Part shown: positions 5,806-58,480 of the stretch, in pieces
How the letters are laid out: every line of letters begins with the position of its first letter
How positions within the stretch are numbered: the stretch's first letter is position 1
Assembly: GCA_964647595.1 (NCBI GenBank)
Contig: CAZYGH010000005.1
Span: 34,961 to 98,960, forward strand
Direction: 5' to 3'
DNA length: 64,000 bases
Origin: an uncultured Verrucomicrobiota bacterium
GTDB lineage: Bacteria > Verrucomicrobiota > Kiritimatiellia > CAIQIC01 > Lenti-01
Position numbers and translations under genes: made by a program
The notes under the pieces: generated by a model
The model's input: the letters and a program-made list of their open reading frames with translations, nothing else
Told to the model about the DNA's origin: nothing
Database searches by the model: none

Positions 5806-6602
5806 GCGCAAAAGAACTCCCACCCAAAAAAGCCGCAATCGGTTGCCCGGGGTGGATGATGACCTTCGGCGACTGCATGTCGCTGCTGGTCACCTTCTTT
5901 GTGATGATGATCGCCTTCTCCTCCATGGAAGAAGAACGCTTGGCCGCCATGATTGGTGTGCTTCAAGGCGCCTTCGGCGTGTCCGATGTTCTCGAGCCCC
6001 CCGGTTTGGTGGAGCGCAAGGCCATCAGCGATACGGAAGTGGCCTCTCCAGAAGATCAGGATGCTTCCATCCGCGGAGAATCCGAACAACTCCATTTTTT
6101 AACGCCCGACGAAATGGCCAACGCGGTGCCCGATTTCATCAACGAAATTCGCCCCAATTCCGTCGAGCTCATGTCGGACCGCATCTTAATCCAAATGCTG
6201 GACGAAGGCCTCTCCATCGTGTTGGAAACAACAAACTTGTTTGTGGAAGGAACCGCCACGTGGCAAAAAGATTTTGGTCCGCTGTGGCAAGGCATCAGCG
6301 CCCTCCTTCAAGGACGCGGAAATGAAATCCGGATCACGTCCATGACCAGCGCCTCGGCCCCGGTTGAACATACCGTGGCCGCAACCAGTTGGGGCCTCGG
6401 CGTTGTTCGTGCTGACCACATTGCCCATGAACTGCAAACCGTCATGAAATCCCCCGCCTCCCGTTTTGGTGTGGGGGTTCAGGTCTATGACGATGAATCT
6501 AAAAATGCCCGAAATGACCACGTCGAAATCCTGATCATGGAAAAGGCAAAGGTCACCGATGTCGGCTCCGAAACCTCCTGGCCCAAGGGGATGTTCCGGT
6601 GA
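5802..6602 (+). CDS. motB: MotB-like stator protein (TM + plug region; no recognisable OmpA-like peptidoglycan-binding domain)
   Basis: ATGA overlap with motA. The N-terminus GWMMTFGDCMSLLVTFFVMMIAFSS is MotB TM/plug-like. The C-terminal half lacks the NxxLSxxRAxxV motif. Confidence 0.62.
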   Translation: MSAKELPPKKAAIGCPGWMMTFGDCMSLLVTFFVMMIAFSSMEEERLAAMIGVLQGAFGVSDVLEPPGLVERKAISDTEVASPEDQDASIRGESEQLHFLTPDEMANAVPDFINEIRPNSVELMSDRILIQMLDEGLSIVLETTNLFVEGTATWQKDFGPLWQGISALLQGRGNEIRITSMTSASAPVEHTVAATSWGLGVVRADHIAHELQTVMKSPASRFGVGVQVYDDESKNARNDHVEILIMEKAKVTDVGSETSWPKGMFR

Positions 6603-15124: not shown

Positions 15125-16234
15125 ATGAGTTTGTCCCGTCCGATCCAGTTGGCCTTTTGCATCGACGATCGCTTTGCCCCTCCTCTCGCAACGCTGTTGC
15201 ACAGTTTGCAAACGCATTCACGCGCGGACCTGGGCGTTCAAGCCCATGTCGTCGGAAACCTGTCCTCCCCCATCCGCGACAAACTCTCCACCCTCTCTCG
15301 CCCCGATTTCGAAATTCATTTTCACACTCAGGTTCCCGACTTCAGCCACCTCCACATCAGCCCCATCTACGCCACCCGACTCAGCCAAGCCACCTATCAT
15401 CGATTGGCCCTCCCCGCCCTCCTCCCCAACGTCAACCGCATCTTGTATCTGGATGCCGACATGATCGCGCTGGACGATTTTTCCACACTGTGGAAAACCA
15501 ATCTTCAAGGCCGCTCCACCGGCGTCGTGCAGGACTACTTTTTGAGCCATCAAGAACGCTGGAAAGTCTTGAGCCTTCCGTTCCCTGAATATTTCAATGC
15601 CGGCATGCTCCTTATGGATCTGGATCAGTGGAGGTCTCAAACCATCAGCGAACGCGTCGCACAGGCCGTCGCCGAACATCCGAATTGGGAATATAACGAC
15701 CAAGACGGCTTAAACGTAGTGCTAAATGGCCAATGCCAATTCTTGGATCCGCGATGGAACGCCACGACAACGCGGCTCCAAGGAAATGCCGTTGACCACC
15801 CTGTTTTCATTCACTTCACCGGCCAAGAAAAACCGTGGCACGTTTCATCCGTCCATCCCTTTCGGGAAGCCTATCGCGAACACAAGCAGCAAACACCGTG
15901 GCGCGACGAACCCCTGACGCATTTTTTGGATCACGAAGACCAGCGCATCCTTCAATCGCTTCAGACTTCCCTTCCCCAAGGCGGCGCCATCGCCATCTAC
16001 GGATGCGGCGCACGGGGACGCCGTCTCGCCCTCTTCCTCCAAGCCCACCACCCGGCATTCTCCATCCGCTTCATGGTAGACCGAGCCGCTTCCAACGAAT
16101 GGAATGGAATCCCCGTCTATCGGCAACTGCCCGAGGAAACCCTCGACGCACTTCTCATCGCCTCCATTCCCTATCGCGACGAAATCCTCAAGAGCCTTCC
16201 CCCCGCCCTTCTGTCACAGGTCAACATCATTTAG
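15125..16234 (+). CDS. Family 8 glycosyltransferase with C-terminal Rossmann-like extension
   Basis: The GT8 DxD region RILYLDADMIALDDFSTLW is present. The C-terminal AIAIYGCGARGRRLALFL region has a GxGxxG-like motif. Confidence 0.68.
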   Translation: MSLSRPIQLAFCIDDRFAPPLATLLHSLQTHSRADLGVQAHVVGNLSSPIRDKLSTLSRPDFEIHFHTQVPDFSHLHISPIYATRLSQATYHRLALPALLPNVNRILYLDADMIALDDFSTLWKTNLQGRSTGVVQDYFLSHQERWKVLSLPFPEYFNAGMLLMDLDQWRSQTISERVAQAVAEHPNWEYNDQDGLNVVLNGQCQFLDPRWNATTTRLQGNAVDHPVFIHFTGQEKPWHVSSVHPFREAYREHKQQTPWRDEPLTHFLDHEDQRILQSLQTSLPQGGAIAIYGCGARGRRLALFLQAHHPAFSIRFMVDRAASNEWNGIPVYRQLPEETLDALLIASIPYRDEILKSLPPALLSQVNII

Positions 16235-23385: not shown

Positions 23386-25163
23386 GGTTCCACCTCGGAG
23401 ATTTCCCGATAATAGACCGGCTCGCCCGCGTCCATGGGTCGAATGTCGAGATACCGCGCAATCGGCGCCGCCATGTGGGCAAACACGGGCGCGGCGGTCA
23501 CGCCACCGGTGCGTAACGGTTGCGGATTATCCAGCACCACAATAATGCCGATCTCCGGCCGATCGGCAGGCAACAGCCCCATGAAGGAGGATACATTTTC
23601 ATTTTTCACATAGTGGCCATGTTTGATTTTTTCCGCCGTGCCGGTTTTGCCTGCCACGCTGTAGCCGGGAATGGCCGCACGCGTGCCCGTGCCGCCTTCG
23701 AGCGTCACCTCGGCCAGCATCGTCCGCATGAGCCCGGCCGTTCGCTCGGTGATGGGACGAGCCAGCGCCACCGGTTTGTTTTCTTGCAACACATCGCCGT
23801 TTTTATCGACCACTTTTTTGACAATGTGAGACTTCATGAGAAATCCGTCGTTTCCAATGCAGCACAAGACATTCAGCATTTGCAGAGCGGTTACCGACAC
23901 CTCATGACCCATGGCCACGCGCGTGATGCTGAGCTTGTTCCATTTGGAAAGCGGATGGAGAAGGCCCGACTCTTCACCCGGCATCTCGATCCCGGTGGGC
24001 TTTCCTAAACCGTAGGCCGTCAGATAGCGATGCAGTTTTTGATCTCCCAGCATCACCGCAATCTTGGCCGCCCCAATGTTGCTAGACTTGCGCAAAATCC
24101 CTGTCACATCCAGCGTTCCATACGGATGGAAATCCCTCAGCGGTTTTCCGGCGAAATACCACATGCCGTTTTCACAAAAGAACAGATCGTTGGTCGAAAT
24201 GAGTCCTTCGTTAAGCGCCGCCGCCACCACGCCGACCTTGAAGACGGAGCCTGGCTCGTAGTTGAATCCAATCGTGCGATTGAGACGCGAATCGGCCTCG
24301 GTATTATTGTAGTCATTCAGGTCGTATGCGGGTCGCGAAACCATGGCGAGGATCTCGCCCGTGCGAACATCTTCCACAATTGCCCACGCGGCCTGGGGAT
24401 GAAAGTTCGTCATGGCGGCATCCAGAGCTTTTTCAACAAAATATTGAATGTTTTGATCGATGGTCAGATGGATATCGACGCCTTCCTGAGGGGCGATCTC
24501 CAGCGAACGGCGGGTATAGATTTCCCGCCGGTTTCCATCGCGCTCGCTTTGGCGAAAGCCCGGGCGACCTCGCAACAAGGAATCCCATCGCTGCTCAATC
24601 CCCGCACTTCCAACGCCTTCTTTGTTGGAGAATCCCAACACATGGCATCCCATGGACGAGTGCGGATAATAGCGGGTGGTCAACGGCTCAAAGAATACAC
24701 CCGGCATGCGCAGACGCTCGATCGTGGCAGCCACTTCCTCCCGTACCAGTCGTGCCACCGGCTCATAGCGGCGACCGGGGCGATTCACCCGATCGTACAC
24801 CTGCGAATACGGCAACTCCAAGATTCTGGATAAGTGGGCGCTAACCGCCTTGGCCTGCCCATTGCTGAGAACGACCAACGGGTCCACACAGACGTTCTCC
24901 ACCGGCAGATCGAGCGCCAAGAGACGCTCATTGCGGTCCAGAATTCGCCCCCGCCCCACCAAAATTTCTTCCTTCACCGTCCGCATGCGAATCACGCGGT
25001 TCTTTTTGGCCTCATTGGGTGCTAAATGCAAATAGCCGAGGCGCCCGATCAGACAGCACCACACCGTCAACAAAATGACGGCCACAAAGGCGACCCGCCA
25101 CATGTACCCCCGATCAATCACGTCGAGTCGATGTCTCGTGGAACGCGTACCGAGCCGGCTCAT
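23382..25163 (-). CDS. ftsI: Peptidoglycan D,D-transpeptidase FtsI/PBP (class B penicillin-binding protein)
   Basis: N-terminal TM, PBP dimerisation and transpeptidase domains with SxxK (SVFK), SxN (SSN) and KTGT motifs. Start is uncertain; the ORF is open to 25226. Confidence 0.85.
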   Translation of the reverse strand: MSRLGTRSTRHRLDVIDRGYMWRVAFVAVILLTVWCCLIGRLGYLHLAPNEAKKNRVIRMRTVKEEILVGRGRILDRNERLLALDLPVENVCVDPLVVLSNGQAKAVSAHLSRILELPYSQVYDRVNRPGRRYEPVARLVREEVAATIERLRMPGVFFEPLTTRYYPHSSMGCHVLGFSNKEGVGSAGIEQRWDSLLRGRPGFRQSERDGNRREIYTRRSLEIAPQEGVDIHLTIDQNIQYFVEKALDAAMTNFHPQAAWAIVEDVRTGEILAMVSRPAYDLNDYNNTEADSRLNRTIGFNYEPGSVFKVGVVAAALNEGLISTNDLFFCENGMWYFAGKPLRDFHPYGTLDVTGILRKSSNIGAAKIAVMLGDQKLHRYLTAYGLGKPTGIEMPGEESGLLHPLSKWNKLSITRVAMGHEVSVTALQMLNVLCCIGNDGFLMKSHIVKKVVDKNGDVLQENKPVALARPITERTAGLMRTMLAEVTLEGGTGTRAAIPGYSVAGKTGTAEKIKHGHYVKNENVSSFMGLLPADRPEIGIIVVLDNPQPLRTGGVTAAPVFAHMAAPIARYLDIRPMDAGEPVYYREISEVEP

Positions 25164-25476
25164 CGGTCTCTTCGACGTGGAGCCGAATGATGTTCTGCTC
25201 CTCCGGCCACGACATGACAATGCCATGGTGCGCCATCAAACGCTCCATGTTCGGCGTGGACCGTGCGGTGGCCCAGTTGCGTTCTTCATTCACCACTCGC
25301 TTGTGAATCTCGGCTTTTTCGTGCTCCAACTTCTTGATCTCGCGCCCAATGCTTTCACAGGTATTAAAGAGGCTCAAGTACACCATCGCCAGCACAGCAA
25401 CCAAAGTGCCAATCGAAACACCCCAAAACATGATCCGGTTGCCTTCGTGCCCTGCCTTGATATTTCGCTTCGCCAT
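25114..25476 (-). CDS. ftsL: Cell division protein FtsL-like (small bitopic membrane protein)
   Basis: About 120 aa with a single TM (IMFWGVSIGTLVAVLAMVYLSLF) and a coiled-coil region. Position between rsmH and ftsI supports the call. The internal ATG start abuts the rsmH stop. Confidence 0.55.
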   Translation of the reverse strand: MAKRNIKAGHEGNRIMFWGVSIGTLVAVLAMVYLSLFNTCESIGREIKKLEHEKAEIHKRVVNEERNWATARSTPNMERLMAHHGIVMSWPEEQNIIRLHVEETDEPARYAFHETSTRRD

Positions 25477-25477
25477 C

Positions 25478-26407
25478 TTATGCCATCCTTTCCAACACTC
25501 GCAGCTTAGCCGTTCGTGAGCGTGGATTTCTTGCCAACTCTTCTTCCGTGGCGGTGACCGCCTTGCGGGTGACCCGACGCGCGCGCGGCAACTGCCCAAC
25601 CCAACGCGAACCACCTTTGGCCAGCGATTCCATCCGCCCCTCGTGGGCCGTCATGAACTGCTTCACCATCCGGTCTTCCAAACTATGAAAACTAATCACG
25701 GCCAACCGCCCGCCGGGAGCCAGCAGATCCAAGGCGGCCGGCAAAACTGACTCCAGCGCCGCCAACTCGCCATTCACCGCGATTCGAAGCGCCTGAAACG
25801 TCTGGGTCGCCGGATGCGTGCGCCCGCGGCGGCCACCTTTCGCCTGCGACACCCACTCCGCCAACTGGGCCGTTGTCTCCAGCGGCTCACCACGCGCCAA
25901 CACTCCTGAAATCGTTTTGGCAATCCGTCGCGACATCGGCTCCTCGCCATAGCGCCACAAGATATCGGCCAACTCCAGCGGAGAGAGTTGTTTCAGCAAG
26001 GTAGCCGCCGTGAGCTCCTGCCGGTCATCCATCCGCATATCCAGCGGGCTATCCCGCATGAAACTGAATCCGCGTTCTGCGCGGTCCAGTTGCATCGAAG
26101 AAACACCCAGATCCAGCAAAATTCCGCGAATGTTGCCGATCCCGTGTCGAGCCACCACCTCGGCCATCTCCAAAAAATTGGCCCGCTCCACAATCACGCG
26201 ATCTCCAAAAGGCGCCAATGCCGCGTGAGCCAATTCAAGAGCATCCCCGTCTCGATCTAGCGCCAGCATGTGGGCATCCAAGCCAGCCGCCGCCAACACC
26301 GCCGAGGCATGGCCGCCCGCCCCCGCCGTTCCATCCACATACCAACCACCCGGCTCCGTCACCAACCGGGCCACGGTCTCCTCGAGCAACACCGGCATAT
26401 GGAGCAT
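25478..26407 (-). CDS. rsmH: 16S rRNA (cytosine1402-N4)-methyltransferase RsmH (MraW)
   Basis: The RsmH signature MLHMPVLLEETV...YVDGTAGAGGHASAVL...HSLEDRMVK is present. Confidence 0.9.
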   Translation of the reverse strand: MLHMPVLLEETVARLVTEPGGWYVDGTAGAGGHASAVLAAAGLDAHMLALDRDGDALELAHAALAPFGDRVIVERANFLEMAEVVARHGIGNIRGILLDLGVSSMQLDRAERGFSFMRDSPLDMRMDDRQELTAATLLKQLSPLELADILWRYGEEPMSRRIAKTISGVLARGEPLETTAQLAEWVSQAKGGRRGRTHPATQTFQALRIAVNGELAALESVLPAALDLLAPGGRLAVISFHSLEDRMVKQFMTAHEGRMESLAKGGSRWVGQLPRARRVTRKAVTATEEELARNPRSRTAKLRVLERMA

Positions 26408-26423
26408 GATATACCTCGTTCGA

Positions 26424-27041
26424 TCAAACGAACCAGACGCGGCCACTCTGCGTACGCATAGACGGCGAACCAATTCGCAGCCCGCGTTCATCCTCGGTCA
26501 CAGCATCGCCCCCTTCAAACAACTGATAGCGCGGCAGGAGGACGCGTTGGGGAACGGAGAACCAACGCGACTCCTCTCTGCCGCTGGAAATGGATTGGCT
26601 CCTGACAAGCTGGCGCCCCATCCCACCGCGAACTGCGGGGACCGCCTGGGAGACCGCCACCGCACGAACGGGTGTCACAACGCGCGTTGTGGCAACCACG
26701 CGTGCCGTGGTCTTGGATTTGGATTGAACCGAGACAACCGTTTGTGGAATCGCCGACACCACCGGTTTCGCCTTTGACGCGGGAACCACAGCTTCAACCG
26801 AACCAACAGAAGCCTCCGGTTGGCTAATCACACGACCCGTTGCGTCGAACAGTTCCGCCTGTTCACCGTGATTCGCCGAAACCCGATGGTCTTCTTGATC
26901 CCACCAGTTCTCGTTTGCCCCCTTCGGTTTCGCCTCGGACCCAATGCCCAAGATCACACTACCCAAGAAGGTTAGAACCCGATGTATTGTGCCGCTTCCG
27001 CGAACTTCGATTGATCTAGTTGCGAGTTCTGCTCGTTCCAT
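26424..27041 (-). CDS. Hypothetical membrane-anchored protein between mraZ and rsmH
   Basis: ORF with one predicted TM (VLTFLGSVILGIG) and a low-complexity Ser/Val/Thr-rich region. No recognisable domain. It overlaps the mraZ 3' end and the rsmH start. Confidence 0.3.
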   Translation of the reverse strand: MERAELATRSIEVRGSGTIHRVLTFLGSVILGIGSEAKPKGANENWWDQEDHRVSANHGEQAELFDATGRVISQPEASVGSVEAVVPASKAKPVVSAIPQTVVSVQSKSKTTARVVATTRVVTPVRAVAVSQAVPAVRGGMGRQLVRSQSISSGREESRWFSVPQRVLLPRYQLFEGGDAVTEDERGLRIGSPSMRTQSGRVWFV

Positions 27042-27529
27042 GACTCCGGACTCCATAATTCAAATCGGCTACCCACGCCGGCCAATACCATCTGATTGAT
27101 GATTCCGGCTTGTTCCAGCAAAGCATCTTTCACACGGATTCGGCCCTGCGAATCCAAGACCACGCGATCCGCGCGCGAAAAAAAGTCCCGTGAAAATTTC
27201 ATCGCCTGTGCATTGGCAATCGAAACCGAACGGAATTTTTCCAGACGCTGCGCCATTTCGCGGGCCGTCACCACATAGAGACAACGGACGCCAACACCCG
27301 GCAAGACGTACAGCGTGGGATTCCCCGCCGCCTCTCGCCAGTCCGATGGAATCGTCACCCGCTTCTTCCCATCCAGCGAATGGGTATAGCAGCCGACGAA
27401 TGCTCCCGCATTCAGCAGCTCATCTATTTCGGTTGTGACACGTTGCTCCACTTGGCTTACCTTGTGATGCACTTTATCCCACTTCGCCCCACCAACCGTC
27501 AACAGAAAATCGGCCCGATGGTATAACAT
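26972..27529 (-). CDS. mraZ: Transcriptional regulator MraZ
   Basis: Two MraZ repeats with the DxxxR-type motifs (SLDGKKRVTIPSDWR ... LDSQGRIRVKDALLEQAGI). The true start is probably an internal non-ATG codon; the upstream roughly 40 codons are doubtful. Confidence 0.7.
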   Translation of the reverse strand: MLYHRADFLLTVGGAKWDKVHHKVSQVEQRVTTEIDELLNAGAFVGCYTHSLDGKKRVTIPSDWREAAGNPTLYVLPGVGVRCLYVVTAREMAQRLEKFRSVSIANAQAMKFSRDFFSRADRVVLDSQGRIRVKDALLEQAGIINQMVLAGVGSRFELWSPESWNEQNSQLDQSKFAEAAQYIGF

Positions 27530-28022: not shown

Positions 28023-28761
28023 CTCCTGCGGCTGCGGCCATCCCCACGATCATTCCCACGAAGACAGTCTCTCTCATCCCCGCCCTCATACACATCCGCA
28101 CACCCGCGAACACAGCCATCCCCCGCCCACCCGAACCATCGAAGTTCAGCTCCCCGCCCTCGCGCTGAATCAGCGACATGCCGACCAGAATCGCGGCTGG
28201 TTTCGCGCCAAAGGCCTAACCGTTTTCAATCTGCTCTCCTCCCCCGGCTCTGGAAAGACGGCCCTGCTTGAGCGCACCTTGCGCCTCCTTCCAACCGCTG
28301 CCGCCATCGTGGGAGACCTTCAAACCGATAACGACGCCATCCGCTTACGCGCCTCCGGTGCCCAAGCCATCCAAATCACTACCGGCGCCACCTGCCATCT
28401 CGATGCGCATATGGTCGCCCATGCTCTGGAAAAGCTCGACACAACAAATGTTCGAATCCTCTTCATCGAAAATGTCGGCAATCTCGTCTGCCCCGCCTCG
28501 TACGACCTCGGAGAATCCAAACGGGTCGTTCTGTTGTCCGTCACCGAAGGCGAAGACAAGCCCCTGAAGTATCCCGTCATTTTTCACAACGCTCATCTGG
28601 TGCTGATCACCAAGATCGATCTAGCCGATGCCGTGGGTTTTGATCGCGAAAAAGCGTTGGCCCACATTCGCCAAACCGCTCCCAAGGCCCACATCCTCGA
28701 AGTATCCGCCAAAACGGGCGCGGGCCTCGACGCTTGGCTGGCGTGGCTTCAACCCCAATAG
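28015..28761 (+). CDS. hypB: Nickel-incorporation GTPase HypB (His-rich N-terminus)
   Basis: CxxCGC at the N-terminus, His-rich linker, P-loop GSPGSGKT, and the [10 protein letters not shown] motif. Confidence 0.85.
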
Positions 28762-28823
28762 GGGAAATAGGGGTCAGAATAGGGGTCAGTCCTTGCATTG
28801 AATAGGGGTCAGTCCTTGCATTG
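28756..28823. repeat. Tandem direct repeats of the 23-bp unit AATAGGGGTCAGTCCTTGCATTG (2 full + 2 partial copies)
   Basis: Read directly: aatagggg / aaataggggtcag / aataggggtcagtccttgcattg x2, starting at the hypB stop codon. Confidence 0.8.
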
Positions 28824-28836
28824 TAGCATAAATGTG

Positions 28837-28908
28837 TTTTCCACAGTGTGGAAACATTCTTTCCATTGTGTGGAAAAATCGGGAAAAAGTTTTCCATTGT
28901 TTGGAAAC
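28837..28908. repeat. Composite palindromic triad element (copy 1): TTTTCCACAGTGTGGAAA, TTTCCATTGTGTGGAAAAA, TTTTCCATTGTTTGGAAAC
   Basis: Three roughly 19-bp inverted-repeat sites (9-bp arms around a central G/C) with centre spacings of about 23 and 30 bp. The same architecture recurs at 35724-35796 and, inverted, at 54324-54397. Confidence 0.85.
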
Positions 28909-28913
28909 GCTGG

Positions 28914-29669
28914 CTATCGTTTGGAGCCGCTGGCTTTGGGAACCATGCGCACAATCACCGGCGAACCCCAGAGTCGCGTGAGACCCAACGCGCGACAGAC
29001 CGCCTCAAGCCCGGCGGAAATCGCCCGATTCTTGAGCATACGATGCAAGACCATCGGCAGAAAGAACTGCTTCTTTGTTTCGGCAGGAACAAATCCGTTC
29101 TTCGCGAATTCTTCTAGCACCTGCTGATGGCGAAACAAGGCCCAAGGGCGCGTGTTTTTCTCAAACTTCTTCTTAGCACCAAACAGCGCCGGGGCAATAG
29201 CATTCAAGCTCTGTTCCGTGGGATAATCCACAATCACGCCTTGGCGCGCCACTCGGCACAGTTCGCGCACGAGCTCCGGCCAGCGTTCGCAATGGGTCAG
29301 CAGTCGAAAACAAATCACCAGATCAAACACATTGTCGGGCAGAGGCAACTCGATCAGGTTGCCAACCGTAAAGCAACACTTCCCGGAATCGATCGCCGAC
29401 TGAATGCGGTGCCGGCACGATTCGTCGCTACCCAGCACCGTCACACGCCACCCTTCGCGACACAGAGGCACCGTCAACTGCCCGTGCCCACCGCCCACAT
29501 CCAGCACCGATGCGTCCGGAAATTTCCGAACCATGCGCATAGTGATGTTCTCCTGAACGTCCAGCATCCACTGGCCTGCCGGCCCCGAAAAGCGCGTGGC
29601 ATATTCGTCCGACGAGGTATGGATGTCGGCGGTCTCCGGAAACGGACAATCAGGATCGGTTGCACTCAT
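28914..29669 (-). CDS. Class I SAM-dependent methyltransferase
   Basis: Carries the SAM-binding motif VLDVGGGHGQLTVPL. Start set at the internal ATG (MSATDPD); the upstream G-rich ORF extension is antisense-like. Confidence 0.7.
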   Translation of the reverse strand: MSATDPDCPFPETADIHTSSDEYATRFSGPAGQWMLDVQENITMRMVRKFPDASVLDVGGGHGQLTVPLCREGWRVTVLGSDESCRHRIQSAIDSGKCCFTVGNLIELPLPDNVFDLVICFRLLTHCERWPELVRELCRVARQGVIVDYPTEQSLNAIAPALFGAKKKFEKNTRPWALFRHQQVLEEFAKNGFVPAETKKQFFLPMVLHRMLKNRAISAGLEAVCRALGLTRLWGSPVIVRMVPKASGSKR

Positions 29670-32080: not shown

Positions 32081-32207
32081 TCTTGAAACGCTCCGGCCAA
32101 AACGGTCGGGACGGAGCCCCACCCTCCAAAAATCAGCCAAAACAACCTATATTTCACCATTGGAGGGACGACCTCCGTGTCGTCCGTGTTCGTTTTGCAA
32201 GAGCCTC
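32081..32207 (+). repeat. Roughly 125-bp long-hairpin repeat element (copy A), MITE/REP-like
   Basis: Near-identical to 54848-54968. Internally an imperfect palindrome: cttg(c)caaaacgg...ccctccaa [loop] ttggaggg...cgttttgcaag. Lies between the convergent TPR and comEC genes. Confidence 0.8.
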
Positions 32208-34737
32208 ACGGACTCGCCCACAGCCGAATTCCCGTGTCCGGCCAACGGGCCGGGGCTCCCGCCAGCTCGATCTGAATCGTCCCCTGTCGATCGGTTCGCC
32301 ACACCCTCGCCCCTCGCAAAGCCACTCGCTCTACCGTCGTCTCATCGGGATGCCGCCCCTCCGTATCGGGCCCCGCGCTAAAAATCACCTCGCGCGGCCA
32401 CACCGCCTCCAACCAGCTCAAGGAGGTGGCCTCCGCCGCCCCATGCTTTCCCGCCACCAAGACCGATGCCGCCAACGAGCGCCCCCTGCCCTGCATCGCC
32501 TTTTCCTGTTCCTCGCCCGCATCGCCCGCCAGGACAATCGATCCCCCGAAGCGCGCCACTCGCAACACCAGCGAAGCATCATCCGCACGCGCCATCTTCA
32601 TCGACTTCGGCGGCCACAGCACCTCCCACACCATATGCCCCGGCCAATCCCCGCCATCCCCTTCCTGCAAGCGATGAATTGGAATCGCCTCCTCCTCCGC
32701 CCGTTCCACAATTTTCTTCATCAGCGGCGATGCCCACATCATCTCCGGAATCCACACCTCGCCCACATCCAGTTCATCCATCACACGCATCGCCCCGCCC
32801 ACATGCTGCGCATCCGCATGCGTCAAGACCAACGCATTCAACCCATTCACCCCTTCCGCTCGCAACAGCCGCAGCGTGTCTTCTGCGCGAAATTCGGAAC
32901 CCGCATCCACCAGCCCTTTCCACTGTTTCGCCTTCACCAGCACCGCATTTCCCTGCCCCACATCCAGCACCGACACCCGGCACCGATGCGCCTCATCAAC
33001 GCTCCACACCAACGTCAACAGCCCCAACAATCCCAATCCAACCGCCAACGCTCCGCGTATCCGCCGCGCCATCACCGTCGCAATCGATAAAATAAAAAAC
33101 CATACCAACACACCCGCCGCCGGTGGCGTGCGAACAAACCAATGCCCGCCCGGAACATCCGCCGCCGCTTGAATGCTAACCGTCAAAAAGGTGGCCACCA
33201 CGCGAGCCGCATGATTAAACACTTCCGAACAAAATCCGCTGAGCGGCGCACACAGCAAACTCATCACGCCCGCCAGCAAAATGGCAAAAGCGGACGGAAT
33301 CACCACCAAATTCATGACCAGCGCCACCGGCGAAAACAAATTGAAAAAGTAGGCCGTCAACGGAGCCGTGCTGACCCAGGCCGACACCGTCACCGATCCA
33401 TATCTCAACACCGACAGCGCCCACTCGCGCAACCGCTGGCCCACAGAATTTTCTGCCTCCGGCAACTGCCACGGGTCGTGGCGTGACATCCGTTTGAACC
33501 ACGCCTCCAGAATCGGCTGAACAGCCAGCAAACCCGCCACCGCCGTGAACGAAAGTATGAAACCCAAATCTCCCAGTTGAGTGGGCGATGCCACCAAAAT
33601 AACAATCGCCGCAACCGCCAGCGCGGAGATGGCATCCGGCCTGCGCCCCAGAAAAGGTGCCGCCAACAGCAACGACGCCATCACGCACGCGCGAATCGCG
33701 CTGGTCGCCGCCCCCGTCGTCACCGTGTACATCACCAGAAGCGGAGCCAGAATCAAAAACCACCGCGTCATCGGAACGCCAAAAGCCCGCAAAAGCCCCG
33801 CAAACAGCAACGTCATCATCCCGACATGCGCCCCGGAAATGGCAAAAATATGAACCGTGCCCGTCGATGCGAAATCCTTCCGCAACGACGCAGGCAAATC
33901 CTCGCGATACCCCAGCAACAGCGCCTGCAAAAGCCCCCGCTCTTCCGGAAAATCATCCAGCCCCCGCGCCAACACATCGCGACACATCCGCCGCCGCTCC
34001 ATGCACCACGCCACAAACGGATTCCCTCGGTTAGCATCCAGAAACGTAGCCCGGTCATAATCAATCACGGTCTGATTTTCCGGAAGGGTAAAAAGCCCGG
34101 CACGTCGCAACACCAACGGCCGAACCATCCCAAGCAATTGCCATCGCTCCCCATACTGCGGCAACCGGCATCCCTCCTTCCCCCCGCGCAACACCACACG
34201 AATCGAATCCTCCACCCGCCGCCACTGTCCATCTCGGTTCAACCCCTCCACACGCGCATGAAACACCGCCCCATCCGCCAACCCCGCCTTAGCCGGTCGC
34301 GGCACCGCATCCTCTGTCGCCACCACCACCAATTTCACATACTCCATCGGCCGCCCCATCAACGCCGCCAGCGACGCGTGGGAAGACCCCTCCACCGACT
34401 GCCTCGCATGCGCCGCCATCAACAGTAACGCCACACCCATCAGCGGAACCACCGATCCTTTACGTTGCACCCACACAAATAGTGGCAACAGCAACACAAA
34501 TCCCGCTCCCAAATACCACACCGAAGAAATCGGCACACAAAGCCCGATCGCCGTTCCCCCAATGATCGGAAACGCCAACCCCAGCATCGCCCGCCGACGC
34601 GGCGGACGAACCCGCCCCCTCGCCGACCGCATCTCCTCTTCCGGCCACCATTCCACAAACCGATCTCCATCGTGTTGCTCAAACCCTGCCCTCTTGTACC
34701 CTCCACCACCCCGCGCCGCAAGGCTCATCGCCACCAA
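32206..34737 (-). CDS. comEC: DNA internalisation-related competence protein ComEC/Rec2 (with C-terminal metallo-beta-lactamase domain)
   Basis: Three-part ComEC architecture: N-terminal DUF4131-like region, multi-TM Competence domain, and a C-terminal MBL domain (LVLTHADAQHVGG). Confidence 0.85.
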   Translation of the reverse strand: MVAMSLAARGGGGYKRAGFEQHDGDRFVEWWPEEEMRSARGRVRPPRRRAMLGLAFPIIGGTAIGLCVPISSVWYLGAGFVLLLPLFVWVQRKGSVVPLMGVALLLMAAHARQSVEGSSHASLAALMGRPMEYVKLVVVATEDAVPRPAKAGLADGAVFHARVEGLNRDGQWRRVEDSIRVVLRGGKEGCRLPQYGERWQLLGMVRPLVLRRAGLFTLPENQTVIDYDRATFLDANRGNPFVAWCMERRRMCRDVLARGLDDFPEERGLLQALLLGYREDLPASLRKDFASTGTVHIFAISGAHVGMMTLLFAGLLRAFGVPMTRWFLILAPLLVMYTVTTGAATSAIRACVMASLLLAAPFLGRRPDAISALAVAAIVILVASPTQLGDLGFILSFTAVAGLLAVQPILEAWFKRMSRHDPWQLPEAENSVGQRLREWALSVLRYGSVTVSAWVSTAPLTAYFFNLFSPVALVMNLVVIPSAFAILLAGVMSLLCAPLSGFCSEVFNHAARVVATFLTVSIQAAADVPGGHWFVRTPPAAGVLVWFFILSIATVMARRIRGALAVGLGLLGLLTLVWSVDEAHRCRVSVLDVGQGNAVLVKAKQWKGLVDAGSEFRAEDTLRLLRAEGVNGLNALVLTHADAQHVGGAMRVMDELDVGEVWIPEMMWASPLMKKIVERAEEEAIPIHRLQEGDGGDWPGHMVWEVLWPPKSMKMARADDASLVLRVARFGGSIVLAGDAGEEQEKAMQGRGRSLAASVLVAGKHGAAEATSLSWLEAVWPREVIFSAGPDTEGRHPDETTVERVALRGARVWRTDRQGTIQIELAGAPARWPDTGIRLWASP

Positions 34738-35723: not shown

Positions 35724-35796
35724 TTTTCCACAGTGTGGAAAAATTTTTTCCATTGTGTGGAAAAACTGCGAAACATTTTTCCATTGTATGGAAAAC
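35724..35796. repeat. Composite palindromic triad element (copy 2)
   Basis: TTTTCCACAGTGTGGAAAA, TTTTTCCATTGTGTGGAAAAA, TTTTTCCATTGTATGGAAAAC, in the same order and spacing as copy 1. Lies between the convergent hypothetical and tolC-like genes. Confidence 0.85.
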
Positions 35797-35800
35797 TTTT

Positions 35801-37207
35801 TTAGCGCGCGCCCCCACCCAGCGCATGGAACAACGCCGCCGCATCGGCCACGCGTGCCGCCTGCGCTCGCGCCACATCGCTCTGGGCCTGGCGCAGCCGA
35901 ATGGTCTCGTCCAGCAGCGCCATGCGGCTGATGCCGCCCGCTTCGTGTTGTCGCCGCGCAATGTCCTGCACGGAGGCCGTTCGGCTCAACACGGCCGACT
36001 GCGTTTCCAGTGTGCGCGCATCCGCCTCCAGCGCGCCCAACACGTCGGCCACTTCCTGCAAGCCGCGCAACACGGTTTGACGATAGGCCGCCGCCGCCTC
36101 GTCGTAGGCCGCCACCGCCGCACGCTTTTTCGCACGCAAAGCGCCGCCGCGAAAAACGGGCTGCATCAGGGCTCCGCCCACGCTCCACACATTGAGGCTG
36201 TTCAGCAAATCCCCCAGATCCGTCGTCTGCGATCCGAGGCTCGCGGATAGCGTGAACTGCGGATACAGGTTGGCCGTCGCCACGCCCACGTTCGCGCACG
36301 CCTGATGCCACACCGCCTCAGCCGCGCGAATGTCCGGACGCCGTCGAGCCACCTCCGAAGGCACCCTCAACGGCAAGTCGCCGGACAGGCGCAACGCAGA
36401 TAGTTTAACGCCATCGGGAATCGCCTCGCCGGGCTCTTTTCCCAGATAAACGGCCAACTGCCGACGGAGTTGCGCTTCCTGATATTCCAACGCCGGCAAC
36501 GCCAGCTTGGCTTGATCCAGCCATAACCCATGCCGTTCCCACTCCGCTTGGGAAATCCCGCCCACCTTGCGCCGTTCCTCCGCCATGCCGAACTGTTCGC
36601 TCCGCGCCGCCACCACGTCCCGCGCCGCCGCCAGTCGTTCCGCCACCTCGGCCCGACGTATGAACGCCAGCACAACGTTCGCCGCCAACGTCTGCCGCGC
36701 CGCATCCAGCTCATACTCCCGCTGGTCCACCTTGGCTTTCAGCCCTTCCAGCACGCGCCGATTCTTGCCAAACAAATCAAAGTCGTACGAAATGGAAACC
36801 GACGCCTGATACACGGAAAACGGGTCGGGCACCGGCACGTTTTCCATCCCCATCGCTTCCGGATTCACCTTTTGGTGCTTGGCCGAAAGCCCCGCATCCA
36901 CCGCCGGAAAAACCGTTGCTCCCGATTGCGCGCTGTACTCTTCTTTCGCCTGCTTCAGCCGCGCCAACGCCTGCGCCTGCGTGGGACTTTCTTCCAGCGC
37001 CGTTTGCACCGCGGCATTCAGCGCCTCGCATTGAAACAACTCCCACCACGATTCCGGAATGTCCATCTCCGCGTTGAAATTCGTCGACACCTCACCCAAG
37101 GAATCGCTCTTCGGCGCGGCAGGCGCCTGAAAACGAGGCCCCGTCGCGCAGCCCGCCAACACGGCCAACGCGCCGCACAACCCCACAAAAGGAATCCACT
37201 TGCTCAT
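35801..37207 (-). CDS. Outer-membrane efflux lipoprotein, TolC/NodT family
   Basis: Lipoprotein signal (LAVLAGCATGP) and two OEP repeats. It is the last gene of the HlyD-ABC-ABC2 operon. Confidence 0.8.
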   Translation of the reverse strand: MSKWIPFVGLCGALAVLAGCATGPRFQAPAAPKSDSLGEVSTNFNAEMDIPESWWELFQCEALNAAVQTALEESPTQAQALARLKQAKEEYSAQSGATVFPAVDAGLSAKHQKVNPEAMGMENVPVPDPFSVYQASVSISYDFDLFGKNRRVLEGLKAKVDQREYELDAARQTLAANVVLAFIRRAEVAERLAAARDVVAARSEQFGMAEERRKVGGISQAEWERHGLWLDQAKLALPALEYQEAQLRRQLAVYLGKEPGEAIPDGVKLSALRLSGDLPLRVPSEVARRRPDIRAAEAVWHQACANVGVATANLYPQFTLSASLGSQTTDLGDLLNSLNVWSVGGALMQPVFRGGALRAKKRAAVAAYDEAAAAYRQTVLRGLQEVADVLGALEADARTLETQSAVLSRTASVQDIARRQHEAGGISRMALLDETIRLRQAQSDVARAQAARVADAAALFHALGGGAR

Positions 37208-44404: not shown

Positions 44405-46201
44405 ATGGCTCGCGTCTCCAGTGGCTGGATTCTGCTTCTTCTATCGTGGGCTCTTGTTGCCATCCCCCAGATGGCAGAAGCGGCAGGAACAGAGAATTTT
44501 GCCCACTTTACCGTCACCACGAATAGCTATCTTTCTGGCACGTTCACCGGCCAAGATGGCTCGACGTGGACCTACAACAAATGCCAAGGGAGCAGGGTCA
44601 TCCAAGCCCCCACTCCCGGCCTCGCCAAAGGAACCCCCGTCGCCTATCTGGAATCGGGAACCTTGACCGAAGGATGCGGCACCCTCTCCTTCGACTGGAT
44701 GCAAATGTTCGCCTCAACCGTCAGCGTGGAGGTCGTCGTCAACAGCGTTGTCCGCCACACCATTACGGGAAGTGGAAAAGACGTTGTGAATCATACAGGC
44801 CCTCTCACCATCAACGTCGGAGGAAATTTCACCCTCCGCATTCAGCAGCGCAATTCCCAATCCTGCCAAGTCGCCATCGACAACATTTCTTGGACCTCCT
44901 ACGGCGGGAGCGCACCTGAGCCGCCAACCCTCCATTTCTCCCCCGACACCAACCGCCTGCTCACGGCCTACAGCAATGCCATCCAGCTCACCGTCACCGC
45001 CACGGAACCCAATGTCGACACCGTCCGCCTTTGGGCCACCAACATCCCATCTGGAGCCCTTTTCAACGCCGCCACCGGAACAACTCCACTGATTTCGACG
45101 TTTTCTTGGACGCCTTCTTCCTCCCAAACCGGCATCCACTCCATCGCTTTTTTTGCCGAGGACAAAGAAGGCACATCTTCGCGCACCCTTACCATCGAAG
45201 TCACCCCCATCTATCCCTACTACCACTATGCCCAAGGTCTCACCGGAACCGCCCTCAAATCCAAGCTCCATGACATCATTTCTGCCGGCACACGCCAACT
45301 CACGGATGATCAGGAAAACGATGCCATGAAGGTCCTGCACACCGACCCCGCCAACACCAACAACGTGTTCCTTCTCTACAATCCCACGTCCTCCATCCCG
45401 AAGTCCGCCTACAACAACACCCCCAACGGCTGGAACAAAGAACACGGCTGGCCCGAATCTCGCGGTCTCGGCAATGAAGGCCCCGACCAAGTCGACGTCC
45501 ACAACCTCTTTGCCGAGCACATGGGAGCCAATGCCCTGCGCGCTAATCTCTACTTCGACAATAGCGACCCCGCCGACCCCGGCTACCGTTCACCCGCCAC
45601 CAATGTGGCTCCCGAAACCTCCATGGATTCCAACTCGTGGTCTCCCCCCCCTGCCTCGCGCGGCAATGTGGCCCGCGCCGTCTTCTACATGGCCACTCGC
45701 TATGACGGCAGTGAGCCCAACACCTCAGCGCTCGCCTTCTCTGATGATCCCGCCCACACCAATACCATGGGCAAACTCTCCACCCTTCTCGCTTGGCATG
45801 AAGCCGATCCCCCCGACGCCGCCGAAAGCAATCGCAACGAAATCATTTTCCGCTCCTACCAGTACAATCGGAATCCGTTCATCGACCACCCCGAATGGGT
45901 CGATGCCATCTGGAACGACGACGATGGCGATGGCATGAGCAACACCAAGGAAGCCATGGCCGGAACCGATCCCACCAACCCCGCCTCCGTTTTCAACGCC
46001 TCTTTCGCCGGCGGGAGAATCACCTGCGGACTCCTCACCACCGGCCCCACTTGGCGCCTCTACCAAGGCTCATTCCAAAGCAATACCCTCGTCTGGCAGG
46101 CTGTCGCCCAAACCAATCGCCTGCAAAACGGCACACTCACCTTCAACATCGCCCCCACCAACCCTGCCACCTTTTACCACCTGCGCGCAACCCGTCCGTA
46201 A
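44405..46201 (+). CDS. Secreted extracellular nuclease, endonuclease I (EndA/NucM/Dns) family catalytic domain with extra N- and C-terminal domains
   Basis: Signal peptide, then the family motifs NKEHGWPESRG, VDVHNL, RGNVARAVFYMATRY and NEIIFRSYQYNRNPFIDHPEW. Confidence 0.8.
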   Translation: MARVSSGWILLLLSWALVAIPQMAEAAGTENFAHFTVTTNSYLSGTFTGQDGSTWTYNKCQGSRVIQAPTPGLAKGTPVAYLESGTLTEGCGTLSFDWMQMFASTVSVEVVVNSVVRHTITGSGKDVVNHTGPLTINVGGNFTLRIQQRNSQSCQVAIDNISWTSYGGSAPEPPTLHFSPDTNRLLTAYSNAIQLTVTATEPNVDTVRLWATNIPSGALFNAATGTTPLISTFSWTPSSSQTGIHSIAFFAEDKEGTSSRTLTIEVTPIYPYYHYAQGLTGTALKSKLHDIISAGTRQLTDDQENDAMKVLHTDPANTNNVFLLYNPTSSIPKSAYNNTPNGWNKEHGWPESRGLGNEGPDQVDVHNLFAEHMGANALRANLYFDNSDPADPGYRSPATNVAPETSMDSNSWSPPPASRGNVARAVFYMATRYDGSEPNTSALAFSDDPAHTNTMGKLSTLLAWHEADPPDAAESNRNEIIFRSYQYNRNPFIDHPEWVDAIWNDDDGDGMSNTKEAMAGTDPTNPASVFNASFAGGRITCGLLTTGPTWRLYQGSFQSNTLVWQAVAQTNRLQNGTLTFNIAPTNPATFYHLRATRP

Positions 46202-54323: not shown

Positions 54324-54397
54324 TTTTCCACACAATGGAAAACTTTTTCTCGATTTTTCCACACAATGGAAAGAATGTTTCCACACTGTGGAAAAAC
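54324..54397. repeat. Composite palindromic triad element (copy 3, inverted orientation)
   Basis: TTTTCCACACAATGGAAAA, TTTTTCCACACAATGGAAAG, TGTTTCCACACTGTGGAAAAA: the reverse complement of the copy 1/2 order, with mirrored spacing. Lies between the convergent TPR and prepilin-like genes. Confidence 0.85.
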
Positions 54398-54400
54398 CAA

Positions 54401-54778
54401 TTAGGGCGCACTTCCAATCCACAGCTGCCGATTCGTTCCCGTCATGTCCCCACCCATCGACCACAAATAAAATGTCACCTTGGAGCTGTTTGAATACCCA
54501 TACGACATTCCCCACGGATCCATGAAGTTCGAATTCGAATGATTTGCAGCCGCCAGCGCTCCCTTCAAACCATCGATATCCGGCACCTGACCATATTTCG
54601 TTTGGTAATCCGTCACGAAACTTTCCAACTGGGTGACCTCTGCTTCCGCCTTGGTGCGCGCGGCCTTTTTCTGCGCATTCCCCGCCAACCCCAGAATCAG
54701 CGCGGCCAACAACGCAATGATGGCAATCACCGTCAATACTTCAACCAAGGTAAATCCAGCCCGATTCGCTCTCTTCAT
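54401..54778 (-). CDS. Prepilin-type N-terminal cleavage/methylation domain protein (type IV pilin/pseudopilin-like)
   Basis: N-terminus RAGFTLVEVLTVIAIIALLAALIL is the class III signal peptide/N-methylation motif. Start set at the internal ATG (MKRANRAGFTLVE). Confidence 0.72.
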   Translation of the reverse strand: MKRANRAGFTLVEVLTVIAIIALLAALILGLAGNAQKKAARTKAEAEVTQLESFVTDYQTKYGQVPDIDGLKGALAAANHSNSNFMDPWGMSYGYSNSSKVTFYLWSMGGDMTGTNRQLWIGSAP

Positions 54779-54847
54779 CGCATCTCTCCTTGTTTGGACT
54801 ATACTGCGCCATCCCCATGTCGGAATCAATCCCTCTCTCATAATCCG

Positions 54848-54968
54848 CTTGAAAACTCTTGCCAAAACGGTCGGGACGGAGCCCGACCCTCCAAAAACCT
54901 CAAACCAGATTGTTTTCGCCGTTGGAGGGACGACCTCCGTGTCGTCCGGGTTCGTTTTGCAAGGGCTC
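54848..54968 (+). repeat. Roughly 125-bp long-hairpin repeat element (copy B), overlapping the cutA 3' end
   Basis: Aligns with copy A over about 120 bp with few substitutions. The last roughly 23 codons of the cutA ORF are encoded inside the element. Confidence 0.8.
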
Positions 54969-55343: not shown

Positions 55344-55360
55344 CTGTTTTATAAAACAAG
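55344..55360. promoter_or_regulatory. Palindrome CTGTTTTATAAAACAAG in the cutA/PiT divergent intergenic region
   Basis: Perfect inverted repeat TGTTTTATAAAACA, a variant of the 18-bp site seen at 55410 and 58463. Confidence 0.4.
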
Positions 55361-55409: not shown

Positions 55410-55427
55410 TAGTTTTATAAAACAATA
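55410..55427. promoter_or_regulatory. Palindromic site TAGTTTTATAAAACAATA upstream of the PiT transporter gene
   Basis: 18-bp sequence identical to 58463-58480. Both copies are preceded by the related cccaaaa(a/c)gg stretch. Confidence 0.45.
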
Positions 55428-58462: not shown

Positions 58463-58480
58463 AGTTTTATAAAACAATAT
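58463..58480. promoter_or_regulatory. Palindromic site TAGTTTTATAAAACAATA upstream of apgM
   Basis: Identical 18-mer to 55410-55427, about 110 bp upstream of the apgM start on the minus strand. Confidence 0.45.

Follow-up and report, generated by a model that had tools for sequence, protein, structure and literature searches.

REP/BIME, REPINs and RPEs are examples of interspersed palindromic repeats, which have been described in a few well-studied phyla. The BIMEs of E. coli are spread by RAYT and bound by host proteins, while the RPEs, single elements of 100-150 bp known only from Rickettsia, decay as their copies grow old. A GTAG or CGTC head is the hallmark of the two REP superfamilies (PMC3733652). 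We analysed a stretch of 64,000 nucleotides (hereafter the window) from an uncultured Verrucomicrobiota bacterium of the Kiritimatiellia (contig CAZYGH010000005.1, positions 34,961 to 98,960), in which a 72-bp element built from three copies of the dyad TTTCCA-N5-TGGAAA recurs at convergent gene junctions. We conclude, with moderate confidence, that these elements and the related arrays in other genomes form a lineage-specific family of interspersed palindromic repeats of the BIME/REPIN/RPE-like kind, which would be kept by a factor recognising the dyad.

The window contains three such triads, one at each of three convergent gene junctions, and one single dyad. A first-pass annotation of the same DNA had listed the three triads and had overlooked the single dyad, the fourth site of the following list.

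28837..28908, plus strand: copy 1 (P1-22-P2-31-P3), with sites at 28838-28854, 28860-28876 and 28891-28907
35724..35796, plus strand: copy 2 (P1-22-P2-31-P3), with sites at 35725-35741, 35747-35763 and 35778-35794
54324..54397, minus strand: copy 3, in reverse order, with P3 at 54325-54341, P2 at 54356-54372 and P1 at 54378-54394
15479..15497, no strand assigned: single perfect 19-bp palindrome TTTTCCACACTGTGGAAAA within the GT8 glycosyltransferase gene 15125-16234 (+), where it encodes FSTLWK

With up to one mismatch allowed, TTTCCA-N5-TGGAAA occurs 11 times in the window; the number expected from dinucleotide-preserving shuffles is 0.16, and no shuffle reached 11. Three sites were found in each of the three copies, at the positions first proposed. 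The distances between them, measured from start to start, are 22 and then 31 bp (P1-5 nt-P2-14 nt-P3), and not about 23 and 30 bp as had been claimed. P1 consists of two perfect inverted TTTTCCACA boxes. In copy 1 the centres of the sites are CACAGTG (P1), CATTGTG (P2) and CATTGTT (P3), and the linkers are CATTC between P1 and P2 and AATCGGGAAAAAGT between P2 and P3. Copy 3 had been taken for an exact reverse complement of copy 1; it is in fact 97% identical to it in that orientation (2 mismatches in 71 nt, linkers included). Copy 2, which is bracketed by AAAAAAG and CTTTTTT, is 89% identical to copy 1. The 19-bp palindrome ascribed to each copy is perfect in copy 2 only, with 18 of the 19 positions matching in copies 1 and 3. 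The recurring pseudo-peptide seen earlier in the translations of the element was reproduced (FSTVWKHSFHCVEKS).

Searches with Pfam confirmed the flanking genes named in the first-pass annotation: CobW/HypB (+) converges with a methyltransferase (-) at copy 1, an unannotated 301-aa open reading frame (ORF) (+) with OEP/TolC (-) at copy 2, and a TPR gene (+) with a prepilin/T2SS-G gene (-) at copy 3. Copy 1 lies between the stop codons of HypB (28761) and the methyltransferase (28914-28916), copy 2 between those of the 301-aa ORF (35690) and OEP/TolC (35801-35803), and copy 3 between those of the TPR (54303) and prepilin (54401-54403) genes; at all three junctions the distance from the end of the element to the stop codon of the minus-strand gene is 6 nt. 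As counted from the ORF and gene tables, the triad occupies three of the six convergent gaps of at least 60 bp in the window. A fourth of these gaps, between TPR and comEC genes, is taken by one copy (32091-32204) of a second repeat family of about 115 bp, which is unrelated to the dyad triads and contains GGTCGGGACGGAGCCC plus the hairpin GGACGACCTCCGTGTCGTCC; its other copy (54856-54966; 92-93% identical) lies between cutA and the prepilin gene. Directly upstream of copy 1 (28760-28825) are direct repeats AATAGGGGTCAG (TCCTTGCATTG), with two full copies and partial ones; the 12-mer has 9 matches in three sources among the fetched sequences.

To describe the anatomy of the unit we used 296 sites. 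The consensus is (T)TTTCCA-Y-N-S-N-R-TGGAAA(A), 17-19 bp long, with a T before the core in 92% of the sites, a G:C pair at the centre in 295 of 296, and C (76%) or T (24%) at position 7. The spacing between neighbouring sites is strict: 22 bp accounts for 83 cases, 30-32 bp for 81 and 41-43 bp for 7, and the rest are mostly sums of these. Spacings of 21 or 23 bp did not occur in a single case, despite the diversity of the 5-nt linkers (AAAGT, ACTTT, CATTT, ATATT and others), so that the length of a linker is fixed while its sequence is variable. A spacing of 51 bp between doublets is also seen, and the class of 25-nt linkers holds a G+C-rich hairpin, ATCCCGC-N4-GCGGGAT. Since 22, 31 and 42 bp are close to two, three and four turns of B-DNA, the dyads of an array all lie on one face of the helix. 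Decayed copies are few: 36 degenerate sites were found in phase, as opposed to 296 intact ones, with mismatches mostly at the outermost base, and at control offsets only 1 of 1342 positions matched. Stop codons are depleted: of 87 arrays, 50 have no stop in any of the six frames, and the mean number of open frames is 5.4, compared with 1.5 in shuffles. In a logo of the flanks of 86 arrays, TTTCCA is preceded by R-R-K-T, and neither GTAG nor CGTC is present.

Other small elements accompany some of the arrays. Insertions of 73-130 bp are found within array linkers or next to them (L020 1043-1129, L029 3181-3267, L096 1019-1105 and L011 around 2820-2936), of the type GCGCGCGTCCCGCGCACGGATTGCC... 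in the genome CAYNHA and ATAGCCGAGTGCCGAGCCCGAG... in DMJA, MWEZ and SABN. By analogy with REPs, which are targets for some insertion sequence (IS) elements, the arrays appear to act as insertion targets. A perfect 28-bp palindrome, ACTATCACTTATAATTATAAGTGATAGT, adjoins arrays in the CAYNHA loci L030, L042, L063 and L096 (for example, L096 1125-1152), and its 18-bp core, CACTTATAATTATAAGTG, occurs in five fetched loci.

We analysed the distribution of the family by scanning one genome per species for the 17-mer TTTCCACAGTGTGGAAA, which gave at least 113 loci; copy numbers per genome are thus lower bounds. The element is specific to a lineage, a point that the first reading of the window had raised as a check. 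Among the matches listed, 93 of 113 come from 22 metagenome-assembled genomes (MAGs) labelled Verrucomicrobiota, Kiritimatiellia, Lentisphaerae or Opitutia, with GC contents of 58-72%, and the remaining 20 are isolated singles in unrelated phyla. Clusters, amounting to 85 arrays with 2-9 sites, were found among these matches only in loci of the Planctomycetes-Verrucomicrobia-Chlamydiae (PVC) group. The first-pass annotation had extrapolated from three copies in 64 kb to hundreds per genome; one MAG has at least 17 blocks with the perfect 17-mer among the matches listed. The names given by NCBI to array-derived ORFs and to PyrC homologues are 'Kiritimatiellia bacterium'. The nearest relative of the window among the loci listed is the MAG CAYNHA (binchicken_co229_252), with about 80% DNA identity and 5 kb of shared gene order. 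In about 130 kb of related sequence chosen independently of the motif, no arrays were seen except at the queried positions.

Known collections did not contain the element. At the gathering threshold of Rfam 15 there were no matches in the window, and 12 array-rich loci gave one tRNA only. BLAST of the triad against plasmid and phage collections found no match, and a scan of viral contigs for the 17-mer gave 9 isolated matches, none of them an array of this type. One viral contig (L116, 60% GC) carries at 6060-6200 at least eight TTTTCCACA(G) boxes, direct and inverted, 11-13 bp apart and in non-coding DNA; this looks like an origin-type cluster of DnaA boxes, and its layout is unlike that of the arrays. 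Exact-sequence and keyword searches of the searchable literature gave no comparable repeat for Kiritimatiellia or Verrucomicrobiota. The arrays thus apparently represent an undescribed family of short palindromic repeats in one group of PVC (Kiritimatiellia-like) bacteria. The family leaves its mark on public data, where 33 protein clusters of one collection are spurious small ORFs read off arrays. Two contigs, L115 (which ends at the position corresponding to 28865 of the window) and L055, stop inside an array, and L061 and L037 end inside or right after arrays; several contigs ending in this way show that the repeat breaks short-read assemblies.

The triads appear to have been copied as wholes. 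The triad of the window recurs with the same or similar linkers (P1-CATTC-P2-AATCGGGAAAAAGT-P3) in CALMBO, CAYNHA, CAZGMQ, SABN and other MAGs. By BLAST, the triads of other MAGs are 88-96% identical to the copies in the window, whereas for the genes shared with it the DNA identity is only 70-80%. The arrays also differ between relatives at orthologous positions. Directly upstream of pheS, an orthologous array is found in three genomes whose PheT proteins are 76-87% identical; it has 3-8 units, a left flank (TTTTCGTGCTTTCCATT) common to all, and a first linker that is always 14 nt long but differs in sequence, and its last site ends a few nucleotides ahead of the Shine-Dalgarno sequence. An array present in L055 is absent from the window, and likewise one present in L067 is absent from L002. 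A metagenome scan gave about 15 relatives of the 301-aa gene, which precedes copy 2 in the window; 4 of them have an array downstream of it, in one case with the order mirrored. In L128 (96% identity) the gene is followed by a lone P1 and then an island of 45% GC, in L129 by three sites of which two are degenerate, and in the contig pair L132/L133 by a triad in mirror order. No array was found in eleven loci where the orthologue of the 301-aa gene is 46-77% identical, and one further locus ends before the junction; the gene downstream is TolC in none of the relatives. The island of L128 (787-3749) replaces P2, P3 and TolC and holds ORFs that, judged by eye, are aminotransferase-like, GNAT-like and LicD-like. 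The aminotransferase-like ORF reads through the dyad, and the array is the breakpoint of the insertion or replacement of the island.

Roughly one array in ten lies in frame within a gene, which is possible because the arrays are almost without stop codons. Such arrays were found in the dihydroorotase PyrC (four units in L006 and two in its 71%-identical orthologue in L071), in an OppB-like permease (L007) and in TilS (L031), with Pfam domains on either side, and at the same position, between predicted helices, of orthologous membrane proteins in L112 and L023. A search with the PyrC of L006 retrieved about 80 clusters of orthologues with 55-72% identity, nearly all of which have an array-derived peptide between HAEDE and HHLRRPR. 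The number of units ranges from 1 to 6 and the length of the protein from 419 to 506 aa. FSTVWK, FHSVEK and FPQCGK, the three reading frames of the dyad, were all found among the PyrC array peptides. In contrast, PyrC homologues of other phyla, with 49% identity or less, have a short unrelated loop in place of the array, which adds 14-60 residues relative to these outgroups. Forms with two units correspond to the initial or to the final pair of the four-unit form, which fits a single ancient array with later gain and loss of units. In the pyrC DNA of L125-L127 the dyads are intact and the spacings are 22 and 31 bp. Lysine codons in the PyrC arrays are AAA in 17 cases and AAG in none, compared with 27:63 elsewhere in the same genes, and the G+C content at third codon positions (GC3) is 0.29-0.43 in the arrays versus 0.69-0.88 outside. 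The codon usage and low GC3 indicate that the conserved object is the DNA motif and not the peptide. In L125, L126 and L127, pyrC belongs to a single long same-strand run in which purine genes are followed by pyrimidine genes, purL...purF-guaA-pyrC-pyrE-pyrF-pyrB-pyrI-pyrD-pyrK; stops and starts overlap in L125 and L127, and in L126 the calls for guaA and some other genes of the run are fragmented. Some PyrC orthologues also carry in frame peptides such as GRHGGRPSMEGRAPSRPD, which may derive from an element related to the 115-bp second repeat family.

The single dyad of the GT8 gene involves no insertion. It is kept in the 80%-identical relative L096 and adds no residues to the protein, as it occupies the same position as D-[IL]-S-[TP]-L-W in the other GT8 homologues found. 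The full FSTLWK, in which F and K complete the dyad, occurs only in the three closest orthologues (at least 81% identity). In the DNA of the window and of L096 the dyad is spelled with the rare codons TTT, ACA and AAA. Because the native S-T-L-W codons already spell TCCACNCTGTGG, it looks as if a proto-site was turned into a full dyad in place.

We compared the placement of the arrays relative to genes with that expected from the loci themselves. The first-pass annotation had proposed that the element is biased to convergent junctions, which holds in the window, with its three of six gaps, and fails in the relatives, where the multi-site arrays are in 14 convergent, 7 divergent and 37 same-strand contexts (approximate classes), against 76, 60 and 237 for the intergenic background in those loci. 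In CAYNHA, 4 of 9 classifiable arrays are convergent. Convergent placement is thus not a rule of the family as a whole; it characterises the window, and perhaps the sub-lineage to which the window belongs. Arrays were also seen between two genes of an ABC-transporter operon and, with 8 units, upstream of radC beside a helicase-methylase island. Asymmetric units (T.G versus C.A at positions 7/11) have no bias with respect to transcription (5:4 in ++ and 8:8 in -- contexts) or to GC skew (16:13 in loci of positive skew and 16:20 in loci of negative skew). The earlier view that these are not promoter operators is supported, in that a dispersed repeat of the REP/BIME kind accounts for the arrays better than an operator for adjacent genes. 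Readings as sigma-54, extracytoplasmic function (ECF) or sigma-70 promoters were dropped on sequence grounds, and a sigma-70 scan flagged nothing at the arrays.

As RNA, the triads fold on both strands with -21 to -34 kcal/mol (z of -3.2 to -6.3). The values are -26 (plus strand) and -21 kcal/mol (minus strand) with z of about -3.2 for copy 1, and -30.7 and -30.3 kcal/mol with z of about -6 for copy 2. The P1-P2 doublet folds as a single long hairpin of about 40 nt. A simple terminator scan flags P1 of copies 1 and 2, with stems that have only 3 G-C pairs. Compensatory covariation was not detected at positions 7/11, where T..A pairs were observed 9 times, compared with about 16 calculated from the half-site frequencies.

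These results can be brought together as follows. That whole triads are nearly identical speaks for copying. A single consensus in 22 species, and a protein loop that retains it over 30-45% amino-acid divergence, suggest a conserved trans-acting factor, and the whole-turn spacing with linkers of fixed length and free sequence suggests double-stranded DNA read by a cooperative dimer. Arrays would arise by insertion or copying into permissive DNA, such as gene ends, gaps within operons and protein loops, and gain, loss or flipping of modules would produce the differences in unit number and the mirror order. The conserved factor recognising the dyad would keep the arrays near consensus; it could be a transposase or recombinase that has been domesticated, as in REP/RAYT, or a dimeric DNA-binding protein of the nucleoid type, and the two could also be combined. 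At convergent gene ends the array fills the gap and would probably serve as a two-way stop or insulator, through hairpins at the 3' ends, bound protein, or both.

Several observations weigh against a copied, factor-maintained repeat family. No mobility event between near-identical strains was caught, the only strain-level copy found being a metagenome contig from ENA that is 100% identical to the window. We did not detect target-site duplication, as direct repeats of 3-6 bp flank at most 5 of 86 arrays, compared with about 2 expected from a shuffled control. Searches of about 700 kb of loci plus the window for a Y1 transposase (tblastn with an approximate IS200 TnpA query) gave nothing significant, and no trans-acting protein that might recognise the dyad emerged from the analysis of neighbouring genes. 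The in-place origin of the GT8 site argues for selection or sequence-directed drive over transposition, and it is accounted for by none of the explanations tested. Deep positional conservation and strict phasing would also fit an array of binding sites that is purely functional and not mobile. The context classes in the relatives come from a self-trained codon-score gene model and are approximate, because ORFs over-extend through the stop-free arrays. Finally, only copy 2, in which T-runs follow the hairpin on both strands, looks like a canonical bidirectional terminator, copies 1 and 3 being without a T-tail; it is their position and folding that make it plausible that the arrays stop or insulate transcription from both sides where convergent genes end.

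The most serious rivals of a copied repeat family concern binding sites and RNA. The arrays may be pure binding sites that do not move, that is, operators for an abundant dimeric protein (nucleoid-associated, ParB/Noc-like or a roadblock) which oligomerises along one face of the helix, the sites being selected where they are needed. The first-pass annotation had listed an array for a dimeric DNA-binding protein among its options, and our data are compatible with it and, through the phasing, in part favour it. The whole-turn spacing with linkers of fixed length and variable sequence, the invariance of the half-sites and the central G:C, the lack of orientation bias and the scarcity of decayed copies would all follow from such binding, as would retention at the DNA level at orthologous positions in pyrC and upstream of pheS. 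The making of the GT8 site by substitutions in place and the lack of target-site duplication or transposase also agree with it. However, the whole 72-bp triad, including its linkers, recurs with 90-97% identity at unrelated loci and in different genomes, which points to copying and not to independent origin; PyrC has gained 14-60 residues relative to outgroups; presence and absence vary at orthologous sites; and the neighbour analysis gave no candidate protein or autoregulated gene. We therefore consider purely functional, immobile arrays rather unlikely. We give a similarly low weight to a more specific proposal, that the arrays are loading or binding platforms for a dimeric DNA-binding protein peculiar to the clade, which would cover the helix along one face, turning them into roadblocks, insulators or Noc/ParB-like organising sites. 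If this were true, convergent transcription would be stopped, the pur-pyr operon would be partitioned from inside pyrC, and pheS would be shielded from the gene upstream, which would amount to a protein-based termination or insulation system acting genome-wide. To our knowledge, no system of this sort is known in bacteria. Action at the level of RNA, as bidirectional intrinsic terminators or as hairpins that stabilise the 3' ends of convergent transcripts, would explain why all three copies in the window are at convergent stops, the strong folding on both strands, the terminator-like P1 of copies 1 and 2, and the T-runs on both sides of copy 2. It is nevertheless improbable, as there is no orientation preference, the T..A pair at positions 7/11 is not enriched (9 versus about 16), no more than 3 G-C pairs are present in the stems, and a T-tail is missing from copies 1 and 3. 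Moreover, hairpins do not require a strict 22/31-bp spacing, and arrays are also found beside the pheS Shine-Dalgarno sequence and in translated ORFs, in which hairpins would be unwound.

The remaining explanations are less likely still. The consensus of the DnaA box is TTWTNCACA, which the half-site TTTTCCACA fits, and clusters of such boxes titrate or reactivate DnaA at datA and DARS in E. coli and occur as DnaA-box clusters in B. subtilis. The two inverted perfect boxes of P1, and the viral cluster on L116, which suggests that the box may be used in such organisms, are in line with a role of this type. The pattern of conservation is the reverse of that of DnaA, as TTTCCA is invariant, whereas at positions 8-9, which correspond to the CA of CACA, C reaches only 76% and A 68%. 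A strictly symmetrical dyad is uncharacteristic of DnaA boxes, single boxes outside the arrays are not over-represented, the in-frame copies in pyrC, tilS and the permease are hard to explain, and no dnaA was found in the window or the 113 loci by tblastn with an approximate query; we regard DnaA titration as very unlikely. An uptake signal that accumulates by molecular drive would be comparable to the uptake signal sequences and DNA uptake sequences (USS/DUS) of Pasteurellaceae and Neisseriaceae, which occur about once per kb and form inverted pairs at gene ends. The window encodes possible parts of a DNA-uptake apparatus: ComEC (Competence domain plus metallo-beta-lactamase; 32206-34737, -), a large secreted Endonuclease I with Ig-like and TSP3 repeats (44405-46201, +) and a T2SS-G-type pseudopilin (54401-54865, -). 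The unbiased orientation, the copies kept across the clade in permissive coding loops, the in-place GT8 site and the lack of target-site duplication or transposase are likewise as expected of an uptake signal. But at about one array per 20-100 kb the density is far below that of USS/DUS, the half-site TTTTCCACA occurs once outside the arrays in 64 kb (median 0 for words of the same composition), the 22/31-bp arrays and composite triads are left unexplained, and ComEC is also common among bacteria for which competence is not known, which makes this idea, if anything, slightly weaker than DnaA titration. The weakest candidate, which we find hardly credible, is that the arrays are ends or remnants of transposons or IS elements, or a classical miniature inverted-repeat transposable element (MITE), with multiple transposase-binding sites as at the ends of Tn7 or Mu. 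Each element does have three repeats resembling binding sites, and copies 2 and 3 are mutually inverted with P1 outermost. A transposon bounded by these two copies was rejected, since the 18.6 kb between them consists of housekeeping genes. Elsewhere, too, the arrays are single and do not form inverted pairs around cargo, and plasmid and phage collections gave no match. A MITE would have terminal inverted repeats with target-site duplication, and the flanking repeats at no more than 5 of 86 arrays (about 2 expected) do not bear this out. The terminal repeat of an IS or transposon, which the first-pass annotation had named as the finding that would undo its REP-like interpretation, is thereby rejected: target-site duplication was not seen, a transposase was found neither in about 700 kb nor next to the arrays examined, and there is no recurrent neighbour. 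A weak transposase match beside the array of L036 was, by eye from its translation, an MscS-like channel, and when the neighbours were inspected for a binder that regulates itself or for an element capable of autonomous movement, the genes that recurred were pheS, pyrC and generic ABC or epimerase genes alone.

Some further features of the window were noted. An A/T palindrome, GTTTTATAAAAC, occurs three times (55346-55357, 55412-55423 and 58464-58475) and in none of the fetched loci; two copies are upstream of a gene for a PHO4 phosphate transporter (55546), and the third separates the genes for phosphoglycerate mutase and RNase T. The palindrome may be an operator or promoter element. GC skew, which is unusually strong in this genome, is negative across the whole window (-0.02 to -0.38 in 2-kb windows) regardless of the strand of the genes, and the lack of a sign change places the window on one replichore. 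The start of a cell-division cluster on the minus strand (MraZ, Methyltransf_5 and a PBP_dimer/Transpeptidase gene; 25015-27529) is divergent from hypA-hypB.

Comparison with known repeats supports the view that the arrays resemble BIME/REPIN with RPE-like in-frame copies, and that they are a member of none of those families. Like REP, BIME and REPIN elements, they are dispersed short palindromes at gene ends and in operons, with units capable of forming hairpins and doublets that fold into one long hairpin; they form mosaics in which the linkers fall into a few fixed classes and the units vary in number, they receive insertions of other mobile elements, and there is no target-site duplication. 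Unlike REP and BIME elements, they lack a GTAG or CGTC head in the logo of 86 flanks, the dyad is a perfect, operator-like palindrome rich in A/T in genomes of 58-72% GC and is spaced by whole turns, about 10% of the arrays are in frame in genes, the same core is unchanged in 22 MAGs, and no RAYT was found with the arrays (tblastn with an approximate query, about 700 kb of loci plus the window). With RPEs they share residence in frame in genes as well as between them, a tolerated peptide, the lack of stop codons and a mechanism of mobilisation that is unknown. By their description as single elements confined to Rickettsia, RPEs are set apart, and, whereas old RPE copies decay, the dyad motif is held against codon bias across PyrC orthologues of 55-72% identity. 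BOX elements of Streptococcus pneumoniae and MIRU elements are similarly modular, with an internal module in variable number and intergenic positions near gene ends; their sequences are unrelated to the arrays, and their modules are not dyad operators and follow no rule of helical phasing.

The individual sites are closer to those of cooperative repressors. The OR1-3 triads of lambda, the ARG boxes of ArgR (about 21 bp apart) and the NrdR boxes (about 31-32 bp) are also 17-bp palindromes with invariant half-sites and a free centre, placed two or three helical turns apart and in triads. Those systems, however, are confined to single loci at promoters, while the dyad arrays are dispersed, mostly at the 3' ends of genes and also within ORFs. 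There is some resemblance to parS and Noc sites, as the half-site TTTTCCAC can be compared with TGTTTCAC of parS, and the arms TTTCC/GGAAA with the Noc site ATTTCCCGGGAAAT. parS and Noc sites also lie within coding regions, where they are held at the DNA level. The spacing of the half-sites differs by 3-5 bp, and the known chromosomal sites do not form tandem phased arrays; the canonical parS, TGTTNCACGTGAAACA (a 16-bp palindrome), was not found in the window with up to 3 mismatches, nor as an exact match in 146 loci. By analogy, the nearest known model that combines copying with protein binding would be the BIME of E. coli, with the differences that the REP head is absent and no RAYT was seen.

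For the annotation of MAGs, the family matters because arrays extend or interrupt real genes, yield spurious small ORFs and break assemblies; they could also serve as a lineage marker. That the dyads are letter-perfect against codon bias across a deep clade implies a conserved factor that reads them. The family unites features that are normally separate, namely operator-like dyads spaced by whole helical turns, mosaics like those of BIMEs and, as in RPEs, in-frame residence, here in essential genes. The dyad arrays would extend the kind of repeat represented by REP/BIME, REPINs and RPEs to the Kiritimatiellia and Verrucomicrobiota, for which the literature searched gave nothing comparable.

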